Positions 26,808 through 48,947 of a stretch of DNA of 50,205 bases are shown here, in pieces. The stretch is from assembly GCA_964533715.1 (NCBI GenBank), contig CAZHNI010000003.1:32170-82374 (forward strand). The letters run 5' to 3'. How positions within the stretch are numbered: the first letter of the stretch is position 1; each line of letters starts with the position of its first letter. The notes beneath the pieces are model-generated. The model was given only the letters and a program-made list of their open reading frames with translations. It was not told the origin of the DNA and searched no databases. Source of the DNA: an uncultured Gammaproteobacteria bacterium (lineage in GTDB: Bacteria; Patescibacteriota; Patescibacteriia; Magasanikbacterales; GWA2-37-8). A program made the translations under genes and the position numbers.

Positions 26808-26969
26808 TATGTAGTTAATTTAGATTAAAAGTAGTTTTTATTTTAACAAAATAAAAACCATCTTTTTATAGAGATGATTTATTGATAAGAGATTTTTCGG
26901 CGCTCGGATGAATTCCGAGCGCCATTGGTTTGAGATTCTGTAGGGTCGCGCCCCCCCGAGGTCGACGAC

Positions 26970-27221
26970 CTACCCGGCGGCCTTCTTCTCCTTCATCTCC
27001 TCGGTGATGATCACGCCATTGATCTCCCCGAAGGGGACATAGGCCACGTCCCGCGTGATGCGGCGCTCGCCGGAGAGGATCTCCATGAGGACGACCGCAT
27101 CATCCGGCGTCTCGCCCTCGACGTCGAGGATCTTGCCGGGGGTCACCCTGTTGCCTCCCCAGTGGATCTCGGCGCATCGTCCGACATTGTTTTTCAAAAC
27201 TCGGAACAGAGCAGGGTACAT
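26970..27221 (-). CDS. High-GC foreign-looking small protein (83 aa), function unknown
   Basis: Canonical SD AAGGAGG lies 4 nt upstream of the ATG. The islet is GC-rich and bounded by AT-rich sequence. Confidence 0.45.
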   Translation of the reverse strand: MYPALFRVLKNNVGRCAEIHWGGNRVTPGKILDVEGETPDDAVVLMEILSGERRITRDVAYVPFGEINGVIITEEMKEKKAAG

Positions 27222-35235: not shown

Positions 35236-35452
35236 AATTTTATCCTTGATAATTATTTAATGCTTGGCTTTCGCACAACTTCCTATAAACAAGTTTATTC
35301 AAAAATTGGCTTATTTATGCTAGTATATTAGCATAAACGTGTAATCAAAAGCAAGATTAAAGGTGCGTTTTTTGTTATAATTTTGCCCGCAAACGGGTCT
35401 TTTGTCACACTTTGCATCAATCAACAGTTATACATATCAAACAAGCCCCCTT

Positions 35453-35989
35453 ATGGAAGCAGCTCCCTCTGCCCAAGAACTCACTAAACTCATGACCCAG
35501 GCCAAGCATGGCGATAAACAGGCCTTTGCTTTGGTGTACCAAACTTGTTTTTTACCAGTGTACCGCTACATTTACCGTCGCGTGGGGCGCGCCAGCGATG
35601 CCGAAGATTTATCCCAAGCCGTTTTTATAAAGGTATATACTTCCGCATCTCAGTTTGTGGGGCAGGGCAAAAGCCCTCTCGCGTACCTTTTTACTATTGC
35701 TCGCAACAGTATCATCGATCAGTGGAAAAAAAATAACCGCCAGCCAGAAGTATCTTTGGAAACAAATGATAAAGATTTGTCCGCCGAAAACCAGCCAATT
35801 GCTGAAAAAACCGATGTTGACGCCGCCCTTGCCAAACTTTCTTTTGATCGGCAACAAGTTTTACGCCTTAAATTTTATGAAGGCTATTCCACTATAGAAA
35901 TTGCCGGCAAGTTAAACAAAACTACCGCGGCGATTCGACAAATACAGTGTCGCGCTCTCCAAGAGTTACGCGTATTATTGATTACATAA
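35453..35989 (+). CDS. ECF-type RNA polymerase sigma-70 family factor
   Basis: Region 2 'FALVYQTCFLPVYRYIYRRVGRASDAEDLSQAVFIK' and region 4 'LKFYEGYSTIEIAGKLNKTTAAIRQIQCRALQELR'. I chose the start at ATG 35453. Confidence 0.8.
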   Translation: MEAAPSAQELTKLMTQAKHGDKQAFALVYQTCFLPVYRYIYRRVGRASDAEDLSQAVFIKVYTSASQFVGQGKSPLAYLFTIARNSIIDQWKKNNRQPEVSLETNDKDLSAENQPIAEKTDVDAALAKLSFDRQQVLRLKFYEGYSTIEIAGKLNKTTAAIRQIQCRALQELRVLLIT

Positions 35990-35999
35990 CTATAAGTCG

Positions 36000-36138
36000 C
36001 GAAACGCCATTCCCCGCTTGGGCGGGGTAGGGGTGGGTGAGGTCGTTGAGTGGCCAATTGGCGGAGCTGTCTCACCCACCCCGGCTCGGTGTTATCTCGC
36101 CGCCCCGCCCAAGCGGGGAATTGCCAGAACGAGTTTCG
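36000..36138. repeat. Large GC-rich imperfect palindrome between the sigma and putative anti-sigma genes
   Basis: Outer arms cgaaac/gtttcg, 'ccattccccgcttgggcgggg' / 'ccccgcccaagcggggaattg', and inner arms 'ggggtgggtgag' / 'ctcacccacccc'. It shares 'ccccgcttg.gcgggg' with the element at 40301-40462. Confidence 0.7.
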
Positions 36139-36156
36139 TAATCGAAAATAAAAAAT

Positions 36157-37506
36157 ATGCCGTCAGAACAATTCGAAACCATTTTAGACGAAGCCTTAGC
36201 ACTTTTATCTAGCGGCAAACCAGCCGCGGAAATTGCGCGTATGTTCCCCGAGCACCAAACCGAGCTCGTGGAATTTTTGGAAACTGCGGCCAATTTAGAA
36301 ATGCACAAACAAGAGCAAAATCTTAAAGCAACATTTTCCAAAATTCTAGAAGCATTACCCGCTGTTTCTGTTGCTAAACAAAAAACATCTTTTTCTTTTA
36401 ACTCATTATTTACCAATATGGCCAAAATATTATTTTCGCGTCGTTTTGCCGCCGGGGCGCTGGGGGTGCTGCTGGTTGTTTATTCGGCTGGTTTTTTCAT
36501 ATACCAACAGGTGGTGGCTCCGCAACTTGTTGTTGCCACTGCCCCAGCTTCGCTAGGCGGGCCACAAGAATTTGGTCTAACAACAAGAACAGATTTAAAC
36601 GAAGCGTCTGTTAATCAAACAGCCCCCGGAGCGGTAGGGCAGGCCGAATATGTTGGTCTATCTGCCAAAGTAGACATGATGCCAGTTTACTACAACCCGC
36701 CCACCCCAAACGCCAACGATACGCGCGAATTTTTAAAAACCAACTATCGCGCCACACTTAAAACGCGCGATGTGGTAGAACTTGGTGGGCATGTGCAAAC
36801 GGTTATTCGTGGGTTTAAAGGCCGCGTGGATAGCGCCACACTAGATGAAAAATATGGTTATATTTCATTCGTAGTTCCAGAAAATAAATTTGATGAATTC
36901 AAAGCCGAACTCAAAAGTTTGGTTGGCAAGCGATTTTTTTCGCAAGGCGTAACAGTTGAAAATTTGTTGGGTCAAAAACAAAATATTGAGGACAACACCG
37001 CCAGCGTTACCACTGCCAAAAAAGATTTGGAAGCACAAAAAACCAAACTCACCACCTCACACAACGCCACTATCTATTCTCTCAACAAACAATTGGCCGA
37101 TGTGACCGCCCAAATTAAAGCGTATGATGAAGAAGTGAAAATAACGTCGGATAGTGTTCGCCTCGAACAAATTCGTAATTTACAAATTCCGCTGGCCACC
37201 GAACGCCTGCGCCTCCAAAAAGCAATCGCGTATGAAAATTCCGAGTTTGTCAGCCAGCGCAATTCACTTGATTGGCAAATAAAACAAACAAATAATCAGT
37301 TGTCCTCTCTTGCTAAAGAAGACAAAAATCTTATTGACAATGTCAACACCGTACAAGGTACCATCACCCTCACGTGGATTAGTATTCCCCAAATCATCGC
37401 ACTCTATGTGCCCATGCCGTGGTCGCCACTTGTTGTTGGGGTTATTATTTTGGGGTATTTAACATTAACAAGACACAAAAAGGTTGAAGTTCAGGAGGTG
37501 ATATAG
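36157..37506 (+). CDS. Putative anti-sigma/DUF4349-like membrane protein
   Basis: Position directly after the ECF sigma gene. One TM at ~aa 95-115, a beta/coiled-coil ectodomain ('YRATLKTRDVVELGGHVQTVIRGFKGRVDS') and a C-terminal TM pair, as in DUF4349. Confidence 0.55.
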   Translation: MPSEQFETILDEALALLSSGKPAAEIARMFPEHQTELVEFLETAANLEMHKQEQNLKATFSKILEALPAVSVAKQKTSFSFNSLFTNMAKILFSRRFAAGALGVLLVVYSAGFFIYQQVVAPQLVVATAPASLGGPQEFGLTTRTDLNEASVNQTAPGAVGQAEYVGLSAKVDMMPVYYNPPTPNANDTREFLKTNYRATLKTRDVVELGGHVQTVIRGFKGRVDSATLDEKYGYISFVVPENKFDEFKAELKSLVGKRFFSQGVTVENLLGQKQNIEDNTASVTTAKKDLEAQKTKLTTSHNATIYSLNKQLADVTAQIKAYDEEVKITSDSVRLEQIRNLQIPLATERLRLQKAIAYENSEFVSQRNSLDWQIKQTNNQLSSLAKEDKNLIDNVNTVQGTITLTWISIPQIIALYVPMPWSPLVVGVIILGYLTLTRHKKVEVQEVI

Positions 37507-37561
37507 AAAATGTTAAAACAAAAAAACGACCCTTTGTGGATCGTTTTTTTTGTATTGTAAT

Positions 37562-37786
37562 TTACATGCTTGTACCTCCACACATTTTGCAATCTTTTTT
37601 GTGCCCAAAGAGAAGTACCAACGCAGATAAACCAACCAACACATAGATGACGCGTGAAATGGCTGCTCCCTGACCGCCGAATAACATCCCTACGTCCCAT
37701 TTAAAAAGACCAACTAAAAGCCAATTGAGACCACCAATCACAAGTAACAAAAATGTTACCATATGAAGACCTTTGCCTTTCATCAT
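37562..37786 (-). CDS. DUF378-family small membrane protein with a C-terminal CKMC motif
   Basis: 'LLLVIGGLNWLLVGLF' is the DUF378 signature. Tail 'HKKDCKMCGGTSM'. Confidence 0.7.
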   Translation of the reverse strand: MMKGKGLHMVTFLLLVIGGLNWLLVGLFKWDVGMLFGGQGAAISRVIYVLVGLSALVLLFGHKKDCKMCGGTSM

Positions 37787-37883
37787 ATACCTATGTCACC
37801 CCCTTCCTTTTTTAGTTCAAGTATTTCGCCCAGATATTATACCAATAGGGCTGGCGAGGGTCTAGCAAATTGTCAAGAATCAG

Positions 37884-38020
37884 CATTCCTTAGGGCACCA
37901 GCGCCTGATGCGTTAAGGAATGCGCCCGGTAGAAGCCAAAGGCGTTCTACCGGGTTGTCCCAGCTGGCTCGGAGTGAGCCTTGACCCCGCACCAGTCTGC
38001 GCGCGGCAGACGATGCGGGG
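37884..38020 (-). other. Array of four GC-rich perfect hairpins in the 3' region of the high-GC ORF
   Basis: Stems cattcctta/taaggaatg (37884-37922), cccggtagaa/ttctaccggg (37925-37954), ggctc/gagcc (37966-37980), and ccccgc...gcgggg with inner gtctgc/gcagac (37985-38020). Confidence 0.6.
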
Positions 38021-38038
38021 CGGGCCTGACGCTGGGGA

Positions 38039-38398
38039 TCAGGTGCGTGGGCGGTTTATCTTCTCCCATTCGCCCCCCTTATATCCTTTGGGGAGAAACA
38101 GAATGGTGAGATAGTCTAGGTCCACACGAATCACTTCATCCGCCATCAAGCGGACGTCCGCCTTGGGTAGATATACCCAGAGCGGTTCGTTGGGTGTTTC
38201 CACCCAACGTTCTTTCCATCTAGCCAGCCACGCGAATTGCACTACGGCGAACCCCTTATTGTCGATCGAGATTCCCGCGACCTCCCCCTGACGGTCAGGG
38301 GTCTCTCTGTCGTACCCGTATAGGCTGCCAGGGATTATACGGACTACGACACACTGCCCACCTACATACCTCTTCATGTCTTTTTCTTGCAGGTACAT
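38039..38398 (-). CDS. High-GC foreign-looking protein (119 aa), function unknown
   Basis: SD-like GGGAGAG lies 4 nt upstream of the ATG. GC-rich coding sequence flanked by AT-rich DNA. Confidence 0.45.
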   Translation of the reverse strand: MYLQEKDMKRYVGGQCVVVRIIPGSLYGYDRETPDRQGEVAGISIDNKGFAVVQFAWLARWKERWVETPNEPLWVYLPKADVRLMADEVIRVDLDYLTILFLPKGYKGGEWEKINRPRT

Positions 38399-38546
38399 TT
38401 TACTCTCCCTCGGCAGCGTTAGTTGCTGCCTAAATAACCTATATCAAAAAATAGATACTAATGTAAACAAGTTTGCACAAAATAATAATTAATTTATTGT
38501 TATTTTAAACTAAAATTGTCTATTATAAATATTTTGTAAATTATAA

Positions 38547-38575
38547 TTGACACAGTTCTTGAATTGTATTATAAT
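38547..38575 (+). promoter_or_regulatory. Consensus promoter of TrmB-like paralogue 3 (leaderless)
   Basis: TTGACA, 17-nt spacer, TATAAT. ATG 38576 abuts the -10 element. ATG 38585 lies 9 nt after it. Confidence 0.6.
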
Positions 38576-38584
38576 ATGTCCGTT

Positions 38585-39376
38585 ATGCCAGAAACATTAA
38601 GCAATTTAGGGCTCGATGAATCAGAAGCCAAAATTTATGAGGCCCTGTTAGAATTAGGGCCAGCCACCGTCAGCCAAATCACCAGAAAAGCGGGCATTAC
38701 ACGCACTCTTGGCTACCACGTTTTGGAAAAACTTGGTTGGAAGGGCTTGGTTGACCGCGCTTCTGGCAAACAAAAAAAGATTATCTACACCGCGGAGCAT
38801 CCACAGCGATTGGTGCAATTTGTAAAAAGTCAGCGCTCCATGTGGGATCGGCGGATATCGCAAGTAGAAAGCAAGCTTCCCGAACTGGTGGCGTTATTTA
38901 GAGTAGCGGAGAAGCCGGTGGTGCGCTATCAAGAAGGAGTAGAAGGTGTAAAAAATATTTATAGCGAAACGCTAGAGGCAAAAAGCGAAATTCTTTCTAT
39001 CGCCGATATCGATGGTTGGATTAATCAGGAATCGCTGTATCGCTGGGGTCTGGATTATAACCGAGAACGCAGCCGCCGAAAAATTCACGAGCGGTTGCTC
39101 CTTTTGGATACCCCGCCCGGCCGCCGCTGGGCCGCACATAATCCCGGGTTACCCAAGTTTACCCACATTCGCTGGATTAAATTAGAAATGCTTCCCTGGC
39201 TTAAAGAATTTGGTGGCGAAATTAACATCTACGAAAACAAAGTAATGATGGTGCTATTAAAAAAACCAAATTTAATGGGTATAATGATAGAGAATTCGGC
39301 GTTGGCTAGTATCCTTAAAGGTTTATTTGAATTAGCCTGGACTGTTGCAACACCAATTAAAAAAAGAAAAGCATAA
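38585..39376 (+). CDS. TrmB-like winged-HTH transcriptional regulator (paralogue 3)
   Basis: 'LGLDESEAKIYEALLELGPATVSQITRKAGITRTLGYHVLEKLGWKGLV'. The start is set at ATG 38585 because of the promoter geometry. In-frame alternatives are 38576 and the track start 38564. Confidence 0.7.
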   Translation: MPETLSNLGLDESEAKIYEALLELGPATVSQITRKAGITRTLGYHVLEKLGWKGLVDRASGKQKKIIYTAEHPQRLVQFVKSQRSMWDRRISQVESKLPELVALFRVAEKPVVRYQEGVEGVKNIYSETLEAKSEILSIADIDGWINQESLYRWGLDYNRERSRRKIHERLLLLDTPPGRRWAAHNPGLPKFTHIRWIKLEMLPWLKEFGGEINIYENKVMMVLLKKPNLMGIMIENSALASILKGLFELAWTVATPIKKRKA

Positions 39377-40238: not shown

Positions 40239-40300
40239 AGAGTTTGTCAAGAGAGATGCGCTAGCGTGTGTCTGGAATGCTTTGAGTTACGAAACTCAAC

Positions 40301-40462
40301 TGTCATTCTGAGCCTGCCTCCTGCATGCGCCCTGCCTGCGCAGACAGGAGGCATGGCGCAGACAGGCGTAGCGAAGAATCTCTGTCTCAATTGGCCAACG
40401 TTGGCCAAGTTAAAAACCGGACAGAGATCCTTCACCCCGCTTGAGCGGGGTTCAGGATGACA
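40301..40462. repeat. Full-length MITE-like palindromic element (162 bp)
   Basis: Termini 'tgtcattctgagc' / 'ttcaggatgaca'. Internal 'ctcctgcatgcgcc...ggcatggcgcagacagg' is shared with 709-837. 'gtagcgaagaatctctgtc'/'gacagagatccttcac' form a sub-palindrome. Confidence 0.75.
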
Positions 40463-40590
40463 AAATGGGTGTTTCTTAATTTAAAGCTGGAATGCGCTAC
40501 CTTTTTTTGTAGATTAATGAGAATTAAAATTAGGTTTTAAGTTGGTGTATGTGGATAAAACAGTGTATAAGTGAGTCCATCTGTGTACAT

Positions 40591-44794: not shown

Positions 44795-45691
44795 ATGGTA
44801 GCACGTCGGGTATTTTTTGGTCTCATGTGTCTCAGTCTCTACCTTATCACGGCCTCGCCAGTCTCGGCTTTTTCCATTAGTCCATTGCGCTATACCGTGG
44901 ATATTGATGCAGGTAAGACGCGCGGCCTCCCAATAAAAATTGTTAATTCAGAATTAGAAAAAAAAACGTATCATCTTAAAGTGGTTGGAGTGAGGCAAGA
45001 TGAATTTGGCCATCCGATTTTTGGTACAGAATTTGACCCAGCCGAAAAATGGGTAGTGCCAGAAAAATCATTTATACAATTAGAAAAAAACGAATCAGCC
45101 ACTGTTTTTTTTAATCTTGTTGTTCCCGCAGGGGCTAATCCGGGGGCGCATTATCTTGGTTTGGCAGCGGAATCAGATGCAGAAAAAGGAACTGGCAACA
45201 CGCTGACTGGGCGTTTAGTTACACTTCTTATTGTGCGCGTGGCTGGCAAAGTACAGGAAGGGCTTGAAGTTAGAGGCTGGCAAGCGCCCGCGGTAACAAT
45301 AAGCGGAAGGTGGCCAATCGTCGTATCATTTTTTAATGCCGGTACCGTTGCGGTGCCACTATCGGGGGAAGTGGTTGTACAGAATTGGTATCAAAAAGAA
45401 TTATTAAAAAAACCACTCGTTCTAGGTAATAATTTAGTGCCAGGGGCATTTCGAAAAGTAGAGAGTGTGGTTGATGCCGGGGCCGTGTTACATTTTCCAG
45501 CATGGTATAAAATTACGGGAAAAATTAGTTATGGGCAGACAAAGCAAGTGGTTAAAACTACAGCAACGCTATGGTATTTTCCAGTTTGGTTTTGTGTTAG
45601 TTTATTTGTGGTAGGCTGTGGTCTGATATGGTTAGTGATATCGCGCATCCGAAAAAGAAAATCTCAAAAAATTTCCAAACAATTTGTATAA
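44795..45691 (+). CDS. Secreted beta-rich protein with a C-terminal TM anchor and basic tail (DUF916-like layout, possible chaperone/assembly factor)
   Basis: Signal peptide ending VSA, 'FSISPLRYTVDIDAGKTRGLPIKIVNSE', and C-terminal 'WYFPVWFCVSLFVVGCGLIWLVISRIRKRK'. Confidence 0.6.
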   Translation: MVARRVFFGLMCLSLYLITASPVSAFSISPLRYTVDIDAGKTRGLPIKIVNSELEKKTYHLKVVGVRQDEFGHPIFGTEFDPAEKWVVPEKSFIQLEKNESATVFFNLVVPAGANPGAHYLGLAAESDAEKGTGNTLTGRLVTLLIVRVAGKVQEGLEVRGWQAPAVTISGRWPIVVSFFNAGTVAVPLSGEVVVQNWYQKELLKKPLVLGNNLVPGAFRKVESVVDAGAVLHFPAWYKITGKISYGQTKQVVKTTATLWYFPVWFCVSLFVVGCGLIWLVISRIRKRKSQKISKQFV

Positions 45692-48600
45692 CAAAAGTAC
45701 TGTGCGCACATCTTCAAAAGTTTTTGTAATAATTTTGTTTAGCTTCGTGGTTTCCGGAGCCCGTTTTTTATTGGCGCAAGCCGTTAGCACTAGCACGCAA
45801 AGTCTTAATGTTACGGTAACGGTGCCGGACAATGGCGGCGGTGGAGGCGGAGGTGGCGGAGGTGGGGGCGGCGGACAGCCAAATAACCCGCCCAGCATTT
45901 CTAATGTTGTTTCGGTTTTAACATATACCACCGCGAAAATTACTTGGAGTGCCAGCGATAGTGATGGTCAAGTTGCCGGGAGCGCTTTTGAATATGGGCT
46001 TACTAATGGATATGGAACGTCTGCCCAAGTCAGCGGTAACTACCAGGTACAGCTATCATCACTTGCCACTAACACGGTGTATTATTATAAAATTTCTGTT
46101 TCTGATAATAGTGGTAACACAACTAATTATACAAGTTCGTTCCAAACACCGCAGTACGTTCCTCCACCGGATGTAACTCCACCAGTCATTTCTAACATTG
46201 TTGTCGACCCAGGCGCAACCACATCAAGTATCAGTTGGCAAACTGATGAAAATTCGGATAGCCAAGTGCAATATGGCGCCACCAATGTTTACGGCAGCAC
46301 AGCATTTGATGCAGCCAAAATTTTGTTGCACAATTTTTTAATTTTAAACTTAGTTCCTAATACCACCTATCACTATCGCTTATTATCTTCAGATGTCTCT
46401 GGTAATACTGCAAATACAAACGATGACATATTTATTACCAGAAAAGATAATATTCCTCCGCCCGATGTGGGTAACCTGGTCATTACTACTGTCAATAATA
46501 ATAGTTTTAAACTCGACTGGACAAATCCAAATCTCAGCGCTGTTCCTGATTTTGTGGATGTAAAAATAGTTAGAAAAATAAATAGTCAACCACAAAATAG
46601 TGCTGACGGTACGGTTGTGTACACCGGTTCTGCAGAAACATTTTTAGACCAAAATGTAGCTCCAAATACGCTATATTTTTATACAATTTTTTCACACGAT
46701 ACGTCTGATAACTTTAGTGCCGGTACATTTGTGAGTGGAAAAATTTTACAAAATATTCCCGAAATTTGTGATAACGGTATTGACGATGACAACAACGGAA
46801 AAATAGATTGTACCGATCCGGCGTGCGTCAATGATTTAAAATGTATTCAACCAAAAAAAGAAATTTGTAACAACGGTATTGATGACAATGGAGATGGTAA
46901 GGTAGATTGTGCGGATCCGGAATGTGCCCTGGAGGCATACTGTAAAGCTCCGCAAGAAATATGTAATAATGGGATTGATGACAACAACAACGGAAAAATA
47001 GATTGTGCCGACGACGAGTGTATTGGAAACATTTTTTGTGGCGGCCCAAAAAAAATAATTGAAATTTGTGACAATAATATTGATGACAACAATAACGGTA
47101 AAACAGATTGCGCCGATTCTGACTGTATTGGTTTTCCTGCTTGCGCGAGTCAAAATCCTATAAAACCAGAGGAGCCAGGTGGGGTTGGTAGTATTCCGCA
47201 AGCAACCAGCAGCGTACCTAATTTTGCTAAGATAAGCATAAGCGAACTAACATTTTTAACTGGGAATCGCACCATTGTTCTCGAACCAAAAAACAATGTC
47301 ATAACGAGTTTGGCCGGCACAACACTTACCATTTTGTTGCCAGCCTCTCGCTTGGTTAATCATCCAAAATCAATCGTGCTCAATATTGATAGTCGCGAAG
47401 ATCATCAATTTACTCTCCCGGCACAATCTGTAAATTATAGTACCGATATCATGATGCCGCAGATTGGTGTGCACTCCGCGGGAATAATAATTGACTATGG
47501 GCTTGGTCAGCGCGATGTTATAAATTTTGGATTGCAGTCTGTTGCACTTGGAATGGTAAAAATTGATGGTGCCTCTGCTTTTGGGGTTACCGTTACGTTG
47601 CTTAACGCGCAAAATCAACCTGTTGATACCACCCCAAGCGGCAGCGCAAACCCACATATTACCGATGAAAATGGCACCTATGGCTGGGTGGTTCCAAATG
47701 GTCGCTACATTTTGGAGGCAAAAAAAAATGGATATTATGATCGTTTAACTCCAGCCTTTACCGTTGATAACAATGTAGTTAATGCAGAATTAAATTTGTT
47801 TGCTCAACCGGCAAAATTAAGCGACGTAGTCGACCCCGATGCCACTTTATCTGAAAATATACAAAATGTTGCAAAAAATTTAGCGCAAAAAACTTCTGTT
47901 GTCGCCTCGCTCACCGCAGAAAAAGTGGTTGATACAGCCAAGGTGGTACAGGAAGTTGCTGATAACCCAAAGGTAGAAAATGCCGCCAGTAATGTGGTGG
48001 CCCCAGCCACCGTTAGTATTGTGGTAGCCAGTACCGTTCCTTTTCTTACCTTTGCCGATGTTTTACCATTTTTACGCCTACTTTTCTTGCAGCCTCTTAT
48101 GCTTCTCGGTCTTCGCCGTCGTACGGGTTGGGGGCAGGTTTATAATTCTTTAAACAAATTACCAGTGGATTTAGCAACAGTTCGTTTAATTAGTAGTTTG
48201 AGCGGCAAGGTTATTCAATCAAAAGTTACAGATAAACAAGGCCGCTATGCTTTTGTGGTGGAGCCGGGGGAATATCGCGTTGAGGTTGCCAAAAGTAGTA
48301 TGGTTTTTCCATCCAAACTTTTAGCAAAATTTAAAGATGATGGCAAAAAAACTGATATTTACCACGGTGAGACAATACGTGTTACAGAAGAAGATGCTGT
48401 AATTACAGCCAATATTCCACTTGACCCAATAGGTGAACACAAAAAACCAGGACGTCTTTTGTTTGAGAGAGTTGGTCGTAAAGTGCAATGGGTTTTATCT
48501 TGGATTGGTTTTGGGGTTACTGCTATGTCGCTTCTCATCGCGCCGCGATGGTATGTATGGGTTCTGCTTGGGGTACATATTATCCTGACCCTTGTTTTTT

Positions 48601-48947
48601 GGCGTTTGGCGAGGCCGCCAAAAGTTAAAAGTTGGGGGTATGTGTATGACGCTGCCACCAAACAACCAATTTCTAGGGCCGTAGCCCGCTTGTTTAGCTC
48701 CCAATTTAATAAGTTGGTTGGTACACAAATTACCGATCGTCATGGGCGATATTACTTTCTGGCCGGAGATAATCAGTATTTTTTGACATATCAACACCAT
48801 GAATATTCTCCAAAAAAGAGCGAGATTGTTGATTTGAGTGGTAAAGATGCCGAAACGATTGCCGTGAATGTTGGTTTAGAGTCTCAAAAAGTTGGTCTTT
48901 CATCTAAAGATGAACAGCCTCCTATCCAAGAAGTGGGGAAAAAGTAA
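45684..48947 (+). CDS. 1087-aa surface protein: signal peptide, Gly14 linker, 3 FN3-like domains, 4 Cys-bracketed Ca-loop repeats, 3 CarboxypepD_reg-like modules interleaved with TM segments
   Basis: Signal 'FVIILFSFVVSGARFLLAQA'. G14 at 45834-45875. FN3-like 'ITWSASD...YYYKISVSD', 'ISWQTDE...YHYRLLSSD', 'LDWTNP...YFYTIFSHD'. Repeats 'EICNNGIDDNNNGKIDCAD.EC'. 'DENGTYGWVVPNGRYILEA', 'DKQGRYAFVVEPGEYRVEV', 'DRHGRYYFLAGDNQYFL'. The start is ambiguous (TTG 45684 or GTG 45702) and overlaps the upstream gene. Confidence 0.75.
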   Translation: MYNKSTVRTSSKVFVIILFSFVVSGARFLLAQAVSTSTQSLNVTVTVPDNGGGGGGGGGGGGGGQPNNPPSISNVVSVLTYTTAKITWSASDSDGQVAGSAFEYGLTNGYGTSAQVSGNYQVQLSSLATNTVYYYKISVSDNSGNTTNYTSSFQTPQYVPPPDVTPPVISNIVVDPGATTSSISWQTDENSDSQVQYGATNVYGSTAFDAAKILLHNFLILNLVPNTTYHYRLLSSDVSGNTANTNDDIFITRKDNIPPPDVGNLVITTVNNNSFKLDWTNPNLSAVPDFVDVKIVRKINSQPQNSADGTVVYTGSAETFLDQNVAPNTLYFYTIFSHDTSDNFSAGTFVSGKILQNIPEICDNGIDDDNNGKIDCTDPACVNDLKCIQPKKEICNNGIDDNGDGKVDCADPECALEAYCKAPQEICNNGIDDNNNGKIDCADDECIGNIFCGGPKKIIEICDNNIDDNNNGKTDCADSDCIGFPACASQNPIKPEEPGGVGSIPQATSSVPNFAKISISELTFLTGNRTIVLEPKNNVITSLAGTTLTILLPASRLVNHPKSIVLNIDSREDHQFTLPAQSVNYSTDIMMPQIGVHSAGIIIDYGLGQRDVINFGLQSVALGMVKIDGASAFGVTVTLLNAQNQPVDTTPSGSANPHITDENGTYGWVVPNGRYILEAKKNGYYDRLTPAFTVDNNVVNAELNLFAQPAKLSDVVDPDATLSENIQNVAKNLAQKTSVVASLTAEKVVDTAKVVQEVADNPKVENAASNVVAPATVSIVVASTVPFLTFADVLPFLRLLFLQPLMLLGLRRRTGWGQVYNSLNKLPVDLATVRLISSLSGKVIQSKVTDKQGRYAFVVEPGEYRVEVAKSSMVFPSKLLAKFKDDGKKTDIYHGETIRVTEEDAVITANIPLDPIGEHKKPGRLLFERVGRKVQWVLSWIGFGVTAMSLLIAPRWYVWVLLGVHIILTLVFWRLARPPKVKSWGYVYDAATKQPISRAVARLFSSQFNKLVGTQITDRHGRYYFLAGDNQYFLTYQHHEYSPKKSEIVDLSGKDAETIAVNVGLESQKVGLSSKDEQPPIQEVGKK
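46761..47150 (+). repeat. Four tandem ~100-nt coding repeats (Cys-rich D/N-rich modules)
   Basis: The units start at 46761, 46858, 46957 and 47060 with 'gaaat(t/a)tgt(g/a)a(t/c)aa...attga(c/t)ga(t/c)'. Confidence 0.8.

Follow-up and report, generated by a model that had tools for sequence, protein, structure and literature searches.

GC-rich stem-loops downstream of bacterial genes have been encountered in several different settings. Tandem or U-tract-poor hairpin terminators are described in high-GC bacteria, and in enterobacteria the repetitive extragenic palindromic (REP) sequences and bacterial interspersed mosaic elements (BIMEs) stabilise the messenger RNA (mRNA) upstream of them, with REPs occurring in tens to hundreds of copies. 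Integron cassettes are short units that join one open reading frame (ORF), often of unknown function, to a structured palindromic 3' element. For the Patescibacteria, horizontally acquired single-gene islets (ORFans), spotted by atypical GC content or atypical GC content at third codon positions (GC3), have been catalogued (PMC12455944). Here, we describe a locus that recalls each of these systems, found in a 50,205-nucleotide (nt) stretch of contig CAZHNI010000003.1 (assembly GCA_964533715.1, positions 32,170 to 82,374; hereafter the window) from a patescibacterium of roughly 43% GC. The locus, islet 3, is a self-contained single-gene unit of about 0.55 kb on the minus strand (38430 to 37883), with a 119-aa ORF and an array of GC-rich hairpins just beyond its stop codon. 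Its likeliest explanation is an ordinary one, in which a small gene was acquired whose structured 3' end is unusual but not exotic.

Islet 3 lies in the intergenic gap between a DUF378 gene on one side and a TrmB-family regulator gene (TrmB3) on the other. An initial annotation had marked a GC-rich patch here, carrying a minus-strand ORF with a Shine-Dalgarno (SD)-like sequence and lying upstream of and divergent from a TrmB-like gene, and these elements are all present. Segments of 61% GC (37880-38111) and 57% GC (38216-38374) stand out against the 42.8% of the window as a whole. The ORF occupies 38039-38398 in the ORF listing and is matched by the family profile described below; the SD-like GGGAGAG lies at 38403-38409 on the same strand, with its GGAG core 6 nt ahead of the ATG; and the divergent neighbour at 38564-39376 matches the TrmB family (PF01978, E 9e-16). 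The ORF has a GC3 of 0.625, compared with 0.417 +/- 0.064 across 34 other window ORFs (its GC1/2/3 values are 0.60/0.38/0.63). The GC-rich segment begins at a stem-loop in the 5' untranslated region (UTR), GGCAGC-aactaac-GCTGCC (38412-38430, minus strand), which forms its upstream edge and sits just ahead of the ribosome-binding site. It ends at the last hairpin, H1, although GC-rich bases carry on into the DUF378 promoter region.

The hairpins were defined from the sequence, from RNA folds and from a perfect-stem scan. The array covers 154 nt (37883-38036), starts 3 nt past the TGA stop of the ORF, and forms four stem-loops together with a closing helix, with the minimum free energy (MFE) and centroid structures in agreement. 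Following the minus strand from the stop codon, H4 (37985-38020) is a nested hairpin of 7 + 6 bp, with two further pairs, one of them G.U, that are present solely in the minus-strand RNA fold. H3 (37966-37980) has a 5-bp stem, and a 6-bp helix (38031-38036 with 37959-37964) closes around H4 and H3 to give a three-way junction at 37959-38036. Next come H2 (37925-37954), with a 10-bp perfect stem (CCCGGTAGAA/TTCTACCGGG) and a 3-bp inner stem, and H1 (37883-37923; 37875-37923 with its tail), whose perfect outer stem is 10 bp long, whose 7-bp inner stem includes one G.U pair, and after which comes UGAUUCUU. Folding of both strands showed the G.U pairs of H1 and H4 to be specific to the minus strand. 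The initial annotation had correctly seen four hairpins and had their stem lengths nearly right; the H1 stem is 10 bp and not 9, H4 is nested 7 + 6 and not 6 + 6, and the enclosing 6-bp helix had been overlooked.

These folds are real and exceptional. On the minus strand the array has an MFE of -94.4 kcal/mol (z -6.5), and on the plus strand one of -93.4 kcal/mol (z -5.5); none of 200 dinucleotide shuffles is as stable. Among all 160-nt windows in the 50 kb, the array has the lowest raw MFE; after regression on GC it ranks third, at -4.9 standard deviations.

Judged by its sequence, the 119-aa ORF is a real gene and a relative of an uncharacterised protein family restricted to Patescibacteria. 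The ORF itself has no match in Pfam, NCBIfam, PHROGs or PADLOC and is a singleton at 90% identity. A phmmer search of 1.84 billion protein representatives brought up a 141-aa protein (P0003) that matches it with an E value of 7e-4, and iteration with alignments then led to a family with at least 342 members, each about 125 aa long. The few named members (Saccharibacteria, Doudnabacteria, Paceibacterota and "Patescibacteria group" among them) and four matches in GTDB genomes are all from Patescibacteria, and a Pfam domain was found in none of 113 members tested. When a family profile made without the window ORF was run against 572 six-frame window ORFs, its sole match was the 119-aa ORF (E 5.8e-6), in an alignment spanning profile positions 1-53 only.

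The family consensus reads M.LTT..V.RFVGGQMEIQN..EGYLYRGEI..I.VEN.EL.V.FAWLAKGEGFPP...WVKD...DIGP..GG..R......LYPP.GSKLD..KVEGL. Its N-terminal block (VGGQ, RGE-I, FAWLA and a conserved Trp) aligns in the window ORF, and the C-terminal motifs DIGP..GG..R and LYPP.GSKLD..KVEGL are either missing from the window protein or not recognisable in it. A frameshift was considered as the cause of the divergent C-terminus and was rejected, there being no copy of the motifs in other frames. Because only the N-terminal half is shared, we class the ORF as a divergent relative and not as a typical family member. A separate observation concerns a 901-aa protein, P0002, whose residues ~600-900 consist of ~44-residue repeats (..GYREVWVQGPNHSLWQYFPAKEGGW..) that align in five stretches with the window ORF at its residues 60-103 (E 1.4e-7); the match is possibly a clue to where the divergent C-terminal half came from, and possibly an artefact of the repeats.

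An AlphaFold model built from 113 sequences predicts an all-beta protein with a short N-terminal helix, at a predicted local distance difference test score (pLDDT) of 76; a model made earlier with 4 sequences reached a poor pLDDT of 63. A Foldseek search of the better model against PDB and BFVD gave no match at E <= 0.001 and TM <= 0.4, and the Lsm, Tudor and CsrA-like rows that it returned were set aside as weak and not significant. Sequence searches of PDB with family profiles gave E > 0.2 only. No family member was found in a scan of IMG/VR, and an exact look-up of the window's 119-aa, DUF378 and TrmB3 proteins returned no record of any.

How does the gene compare with its relatives elsewhere? 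At 13 distinct homologue loci we set the family gene beside the long ORFs around it, and its GC3 is above that of its neighbours by a mean of +0.24 (Wilcoxon p 0.0007). The excess is larger than +0.1 in 11 of the 13 loci, with extremes of 0.92 versus 0.38 (L013) and 0.88 versus 0.52 (L014); the exceptions are L010, which lies under its host's value, and L012, which is close to it. The window ORF, too, is a monocistronic unit with GC3 above that of its host. Since the excess recurs so widely, a "GC islet" is a trait of the family, and in this the family differs from ordinary islets. The neighbours are different in every locus: Cupin/GtrA, Fic, RNR, Ddl/glyoxalase, EamA, GrpB/topoisomerase I, TsaD, rhodanese, YggT/PMT, HNH and MnmA/AlaS genes have all been seen. 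The HNH endonuclease ORF (L015, 7209-7718), found at one locus only, lies directly upstream of the family gene.

Three of these loci make the pattern particularly clear. A common segment of 456-563 nt, with 84-88% nucleotide identity, is present in L013 (4912-5470), L014 (94-654) and L015 (8001-8453), and outside it the sequence and genes are unrelated and the hosts differ in GC. The segment in L013 and L014 includes the promoter, a 5' UTR hairpin preceding the SD (analogous to that of islet 3), the ORF and the terminator; L015 has just the ORF and terminator in common with them. The terminator stem carries a compensatory change within this clade. From sequence comparison, the pattern suggests the expected look of a minimal transcription unit moved between Patescibacteria. 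According to a published survey, most detected single-gene transfers into Patescibacteria originate in other Patescibacteria (PMC12455944), and transfer of this kind best explains the family's GC3 trait.

Islet 3 thus resembles the catalogued ORFan islets in being a sharp compositional outlier, in having homologues that lack synteny and in belonging to a family with near-identical units in unrelated contexts. Moreover, its relatives are confined to the same phylum, which fits the Patescibacteria-to-Patescibacteria transfers of PMC12455944. It differs from those islets in that the unit is minimal, with one gene in ~0.55 kb, and lacks a mobility gene, a tRNA target and repeats. The initial annotation had proposed import from a high-GC genome. 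The islet is compositionally foreign, but the protein's relatives were found only in Patescibacteria, and a patescibacterial donor is therefore likelier than a classical high-GC bacterium.

To which transcript does the array belong? We assign it, as most probable, to the ORF's own mRNA, because it starts right after the stop codon, its G.U pairs form on the minus strand only, and H1 has a U-rich tail in the ORF's orientation. H1 is the sole hairpin with such a tail, and has it in that orientation only: five of the first 8 bases are U, compared with 1-2 U in the tails of H2-H4. It is the probable, if putative, intrinsic terminator of the ORF transcript. A consensus terminator scan called none at the array, and H1 would be missed by so simple a scan because of its interior loop. 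Like intrinsic terminators, the array has GC-rich stems immediately 3' of the stop, with UGAUUCUU after the last hairpin, and the homologues themselves end in canonical terminators, including the one with the compensatory stem change. Unlike them, it packs four structures into 154 nt, including a three-way junction, and three of the four have no U-tract. The window's native terminators are hairpins of A-tract/stem/T-tract form, beside which the islet hairpins look foreign.

Candidate promoters for the ORF lie in an AT-rich region at 38438-38529 (minus strand). A consensus scan yielded two, at 38529-38502 (TTTATA-16-TAAAAT) and at 38509-38482 (TTTAAA-16-TATTAT), and a further possible one was picked out by eye, TTTACA (38467-38462) followed by TG-a-TATAGG.

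Our favoured reading, which we hold with modest conviction to be the probable one, is that islet 3 was horizontally acquired as a monocistronic unit made up of the 5' UTR stem-loop, the SD, the 119-aa ORF and the 154-nt stem-loop cluster. The array would be the 3' UTR of the acquired gene's mRNA. H1, as the last hairpin, would end the transcript, and H2 and the three-way junction of H4 and H3 would add further sites of pausing or termination and stand in the way of 3'-to-5' exonucleases. The array and the 5' stem-loop together would stabilise the message and prevent read-through into DUF378, which would thereby be insulated. Genes of the family would move between genomes as minimal promoter-ORF-terminator units of this kind, and it is plausible, as had been proposed, that the hairpins arrived with the gene.

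The initial annotation had offered three other explanations for so much structure: a structured non-coding RNA, REP-like elements, and a recombination or attachment site. The array might be a functional structured RNA, whether a small RNA, a cis-regulatory leader of DUF378 or a platform for the encoded protein. Its very stable and well-defined fold, with MFE and centroid in accord, a three-way junction and strand-specific G.U pairs, speaks for this, as does its position ~100-250 nt upstream of the DUF378 gene (37562-37786, minus strand; PF04070, E 1.8e-18) on the same strand. However, a promoter scan finds a site resembling a DUF378 promoter, TAGACC-17-TATAAT with a TG upstream, at 37836-37864 (minus strand), beginning 19 nt past the last hairpin; since this site sits between the array and the gene, the array would fall outside the DUF378 5' UTR. 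Moreover, the two strands fold almost equally well, as plain palindromes should.

Database searches also argue against an RNA function. Rfam gave 4 tRNAs only for the whole window at gathering thresholds, and for 37700-38600 the best match even at E <= 10 reached 16.6 bits where the cut-off is 44, and the families were all implausible. Nothing like the array follows the family gene in the 13 homologue loci (eight by sequence, otherwise by inspection), where one or occasionally two hairpins are found that are canonical terminators where clear. As far as these comparisons go, the array is specific to this lineage and not conserved in the family; no homologues of it were found, and hence there is no support from covariation. 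We give little credence to a functional RNA.

The hairpins could also be REP-, BIME- or MITE-like (miniature inverted-repeat transposable element) extragenic palindromes that landed by the ORF independently. The array is indeed a cluster of GC-rich imperfect palindromes in a 3' UTR, like REPs and BIMEs, and protection from 3' exonucleases is a likely effect in both cases. The genome has other GC-rich palindromic intergenic elements (700-835 and 40296-40462; 35990-36150), the CCCCGC...GCGGGG stem of H4 is also present in three hairpins of those elements, and the nested two-tier design of the hairpins recurs. The likeness of the array to these elements is, however, limited to the 6-nt stem. None of the four hairpins was found a second time in the window or in eight homologue loci, scans of IMG/VR for the H1, H2 and H4 stem patterns found nothing, and there are no terminal inverted repeats or target-site duplications at 37883 or 38036. 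The most direct test was read depth in three source metagenome runs, X1-X3, at a likeness of at least 80%. The array stands at a depth of 3.7-4.2, the organism's single-copy level, and the MITE-like element (40257-40500) at 36-106, a pile-up of 10-25 fold, so that membership of a REP or MITE family is ruled out at this level of similarity. REPs, furthermore, are multicopy where the array is single copy, and no RAYT (REP-associated tyrosine) transposase was seen among the scanned ORFs. An independent palindromic element is on these grounds a distinctly unlikely source of the array.

The repetitive elements just mentioned merit description on their own account. The MITE-like element at 700-835 and 40296-40462 is GC-rich, has terminal inverted repeats TGTCATTYYGA ... 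TCRGRATGACA, and folds with -100 kcal/mol (z -8.7); its depth of 36-106 in the source metagenomes compares with 4-6 in its flanks, and a variant with a 56-nt internal deletion (40313 to 40370) occurs. The nested GC-rich palindrome at 35990-36150 (MFE -96.5, z -6.95) takes up the whole space from an ECF (extracytoplasmic function) sigma factor gene (35402-35989) to a DUF4349 gene (36157-37506), and its arms hold CCCCGCTTGGGCGGGG, nearly identical to the MITE hairpin at 40435-40450. CCCCGC...GCGGGG stems are seen four times (36012, 36103, 40435 and, in H4, 37985) against 0.06 expected; this could reflect a common hairpin module, or a chance likeness among GC-rich stems.

If the hairpins are not a repeat, might they act at the DNA level, as a recombination or attachment site or its scar, either an attC-like end or the ends recognised by a single-strand transposase or integrase? 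The arrangement invites the idea, with a promoter-ORF-hairpin cassette that has no recombinase of its own, hairpins at both edges of the GC-rich segment, and a family found in many unrelated contexts. The resemblance to integron cassettes does not extend to the details. The attC cores RYYYAAC and GTTRRRY are absent from both strands of 37840-38060; the array consists of several separate hairpins and not one bulged stem, and the islet has its own promoter region and is not part of a cassette array. A Pfam scan of 32 window ORFs showed no integrase, transposase, recombinase or RAYT, no direct repeats flank the islet, and homologous units end in ordinary terminators and not in arrays. An attachment site is accordingly the least probable of the explanations that we consider, and extremely unlikely. 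A broader version would make the family's ~0.55-kb units an unrecognised minimal mobile cassette, whose terminal stem-loops, expanded to four at islet 3, serve as sites for insertion or for binding of the small beta-protein that the unit encodes. This is very unlikely as well; if true, it would explain both the GC3 anomaly of the family and the scattered single-gene insertions with no recombinase gene.

A more serious question is whether the islet was recently imported at all. Perhaps the gene is a long-standing resident, with its GC excess a family property under selection and the hairpins part of the same design for stability; the selection could act on codon use, on mRNA structure or stability, or on avoidance of AT-directed nucleases. 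The GC3 excess does recur among members just 30-60% identical in protein. In L013 and L014 the ORF has a GC3 of ~0.9, in contrast to the AT-rich promoter and UTR inherited with it, and the window ORF shows no sign of a recent donor, since the searches found no close relative of it. Yet members of the family need not have a high GC3, because those in L010 and L012 do not exceed their hosts. The family gene also lies between unrelated neighbours in every locus, and units 84-88% identical occur in hosts of different GC. We regard a resident gene as unlikely, though clearly less so than the other alternatives.

The favoured reading, an acquired unit with a terminating and stabilising 3' end, has several observations to contend with. 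Three of the four hairpins have no U-tract and, as described above, no terminator was called by the consensus scan. The homologues suffice with a single terminator where islet 3 has four structures, and the match to the family is confined to the N-terminal half of the ORF. The non-coding flanks co-transferred in L013 and L014 are AT-rich, so the GC3 excess could be a trait selected in the coding sequence and not a donor signature. Finally, an empty-site relative of the islet was not found, and a search of GTDB genomes with TrmB3 as anchor brought up no relative of this genome; the insertion itself is therefore deduced from composition only.

A by-product of this work is an undescribed, Pfam-less family of Patescibacteria, with at least 342 members, that is a GC3 outlier in most of the hosts examined and behaves like a single-gene mobile unit that recurs. 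One clade of the family has a minimal transcription unit common to unrelated genomic contexts, and a small protein, all-beta by prediction, appears to have been gained repeatedly. The family can serve as a testable marker of gene flow among these ultra-small, reduced, episymbiotic bacteria, whose routes of transfer are poorly known. The GC islets of low-GC Patescibacteria need not derive from classical high-GC donors.

The neighbours of islet 3 show features of their own. In the drinking-water metagenome of run X4, reads that match the DUF378 gene almost perfectly, with one 1-nt deletion at 37544, leave the window sequence exactly at 37808, upstream of the DUF378 SD. Their overhang is 12 nt only; they may come from a strain with another upstream region, or one without the islet. 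On the other side, a perfect TTGACA-17-TATAAT promoter match (38547-38587) overlaps the listed TTG start of the TrmB-like gene, whose true start is probably the ATG at 38576 or 38585; the gene would therefore have a very short or leaderless 5' end.

The initial annotation had also reported two further GC-rich islets and had suggested that TrmB-like genes mark sites of insertion. All three islets touch one of the 4 genes, out of ~48 in the window, that pass the Pfam TrmB threshold. The random-placement estimate for such contact is ~0.003, a rough figure for a pattern noticed post hoc in which two islets flank one gene. At none of the 13 homologue loci is there a TrmB neighbour, however, and the link is unsupported at the level of the family. 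The ORFs of the three islets are unrelated to one another, and those of islets 1 and 2 were rejected as kin of the family at an hhalign probability of 0.1%. Both of the latter are singletons at 90% identity and matched no known family. Islet 1 (25275-25875) carries a 165-aa ORF with a signal-peptide-like N-terminus and a GC3 of 0.80. Islet 2 (26883-27221) has an 83-aa ORF with a GC3 of 0.85, followed by a 10-bp GC-rich hairpin (26899-26923) with no U-tract; a viral scan for its protein gave nothing.

Two sets of repeats elsewhere in the window complete the survey. Tandem arrays of the heptamer ACTATTT occur at 52-79 and 478-519, 426 nt apart, within a listed ORF at 16-687, and four coding repeats of ~100 nt (Cys/Asp-rich, EICDNGIDDDNNGKIDC) are found at 46761-47131 within a 1087-aa ORF (45684-48947).

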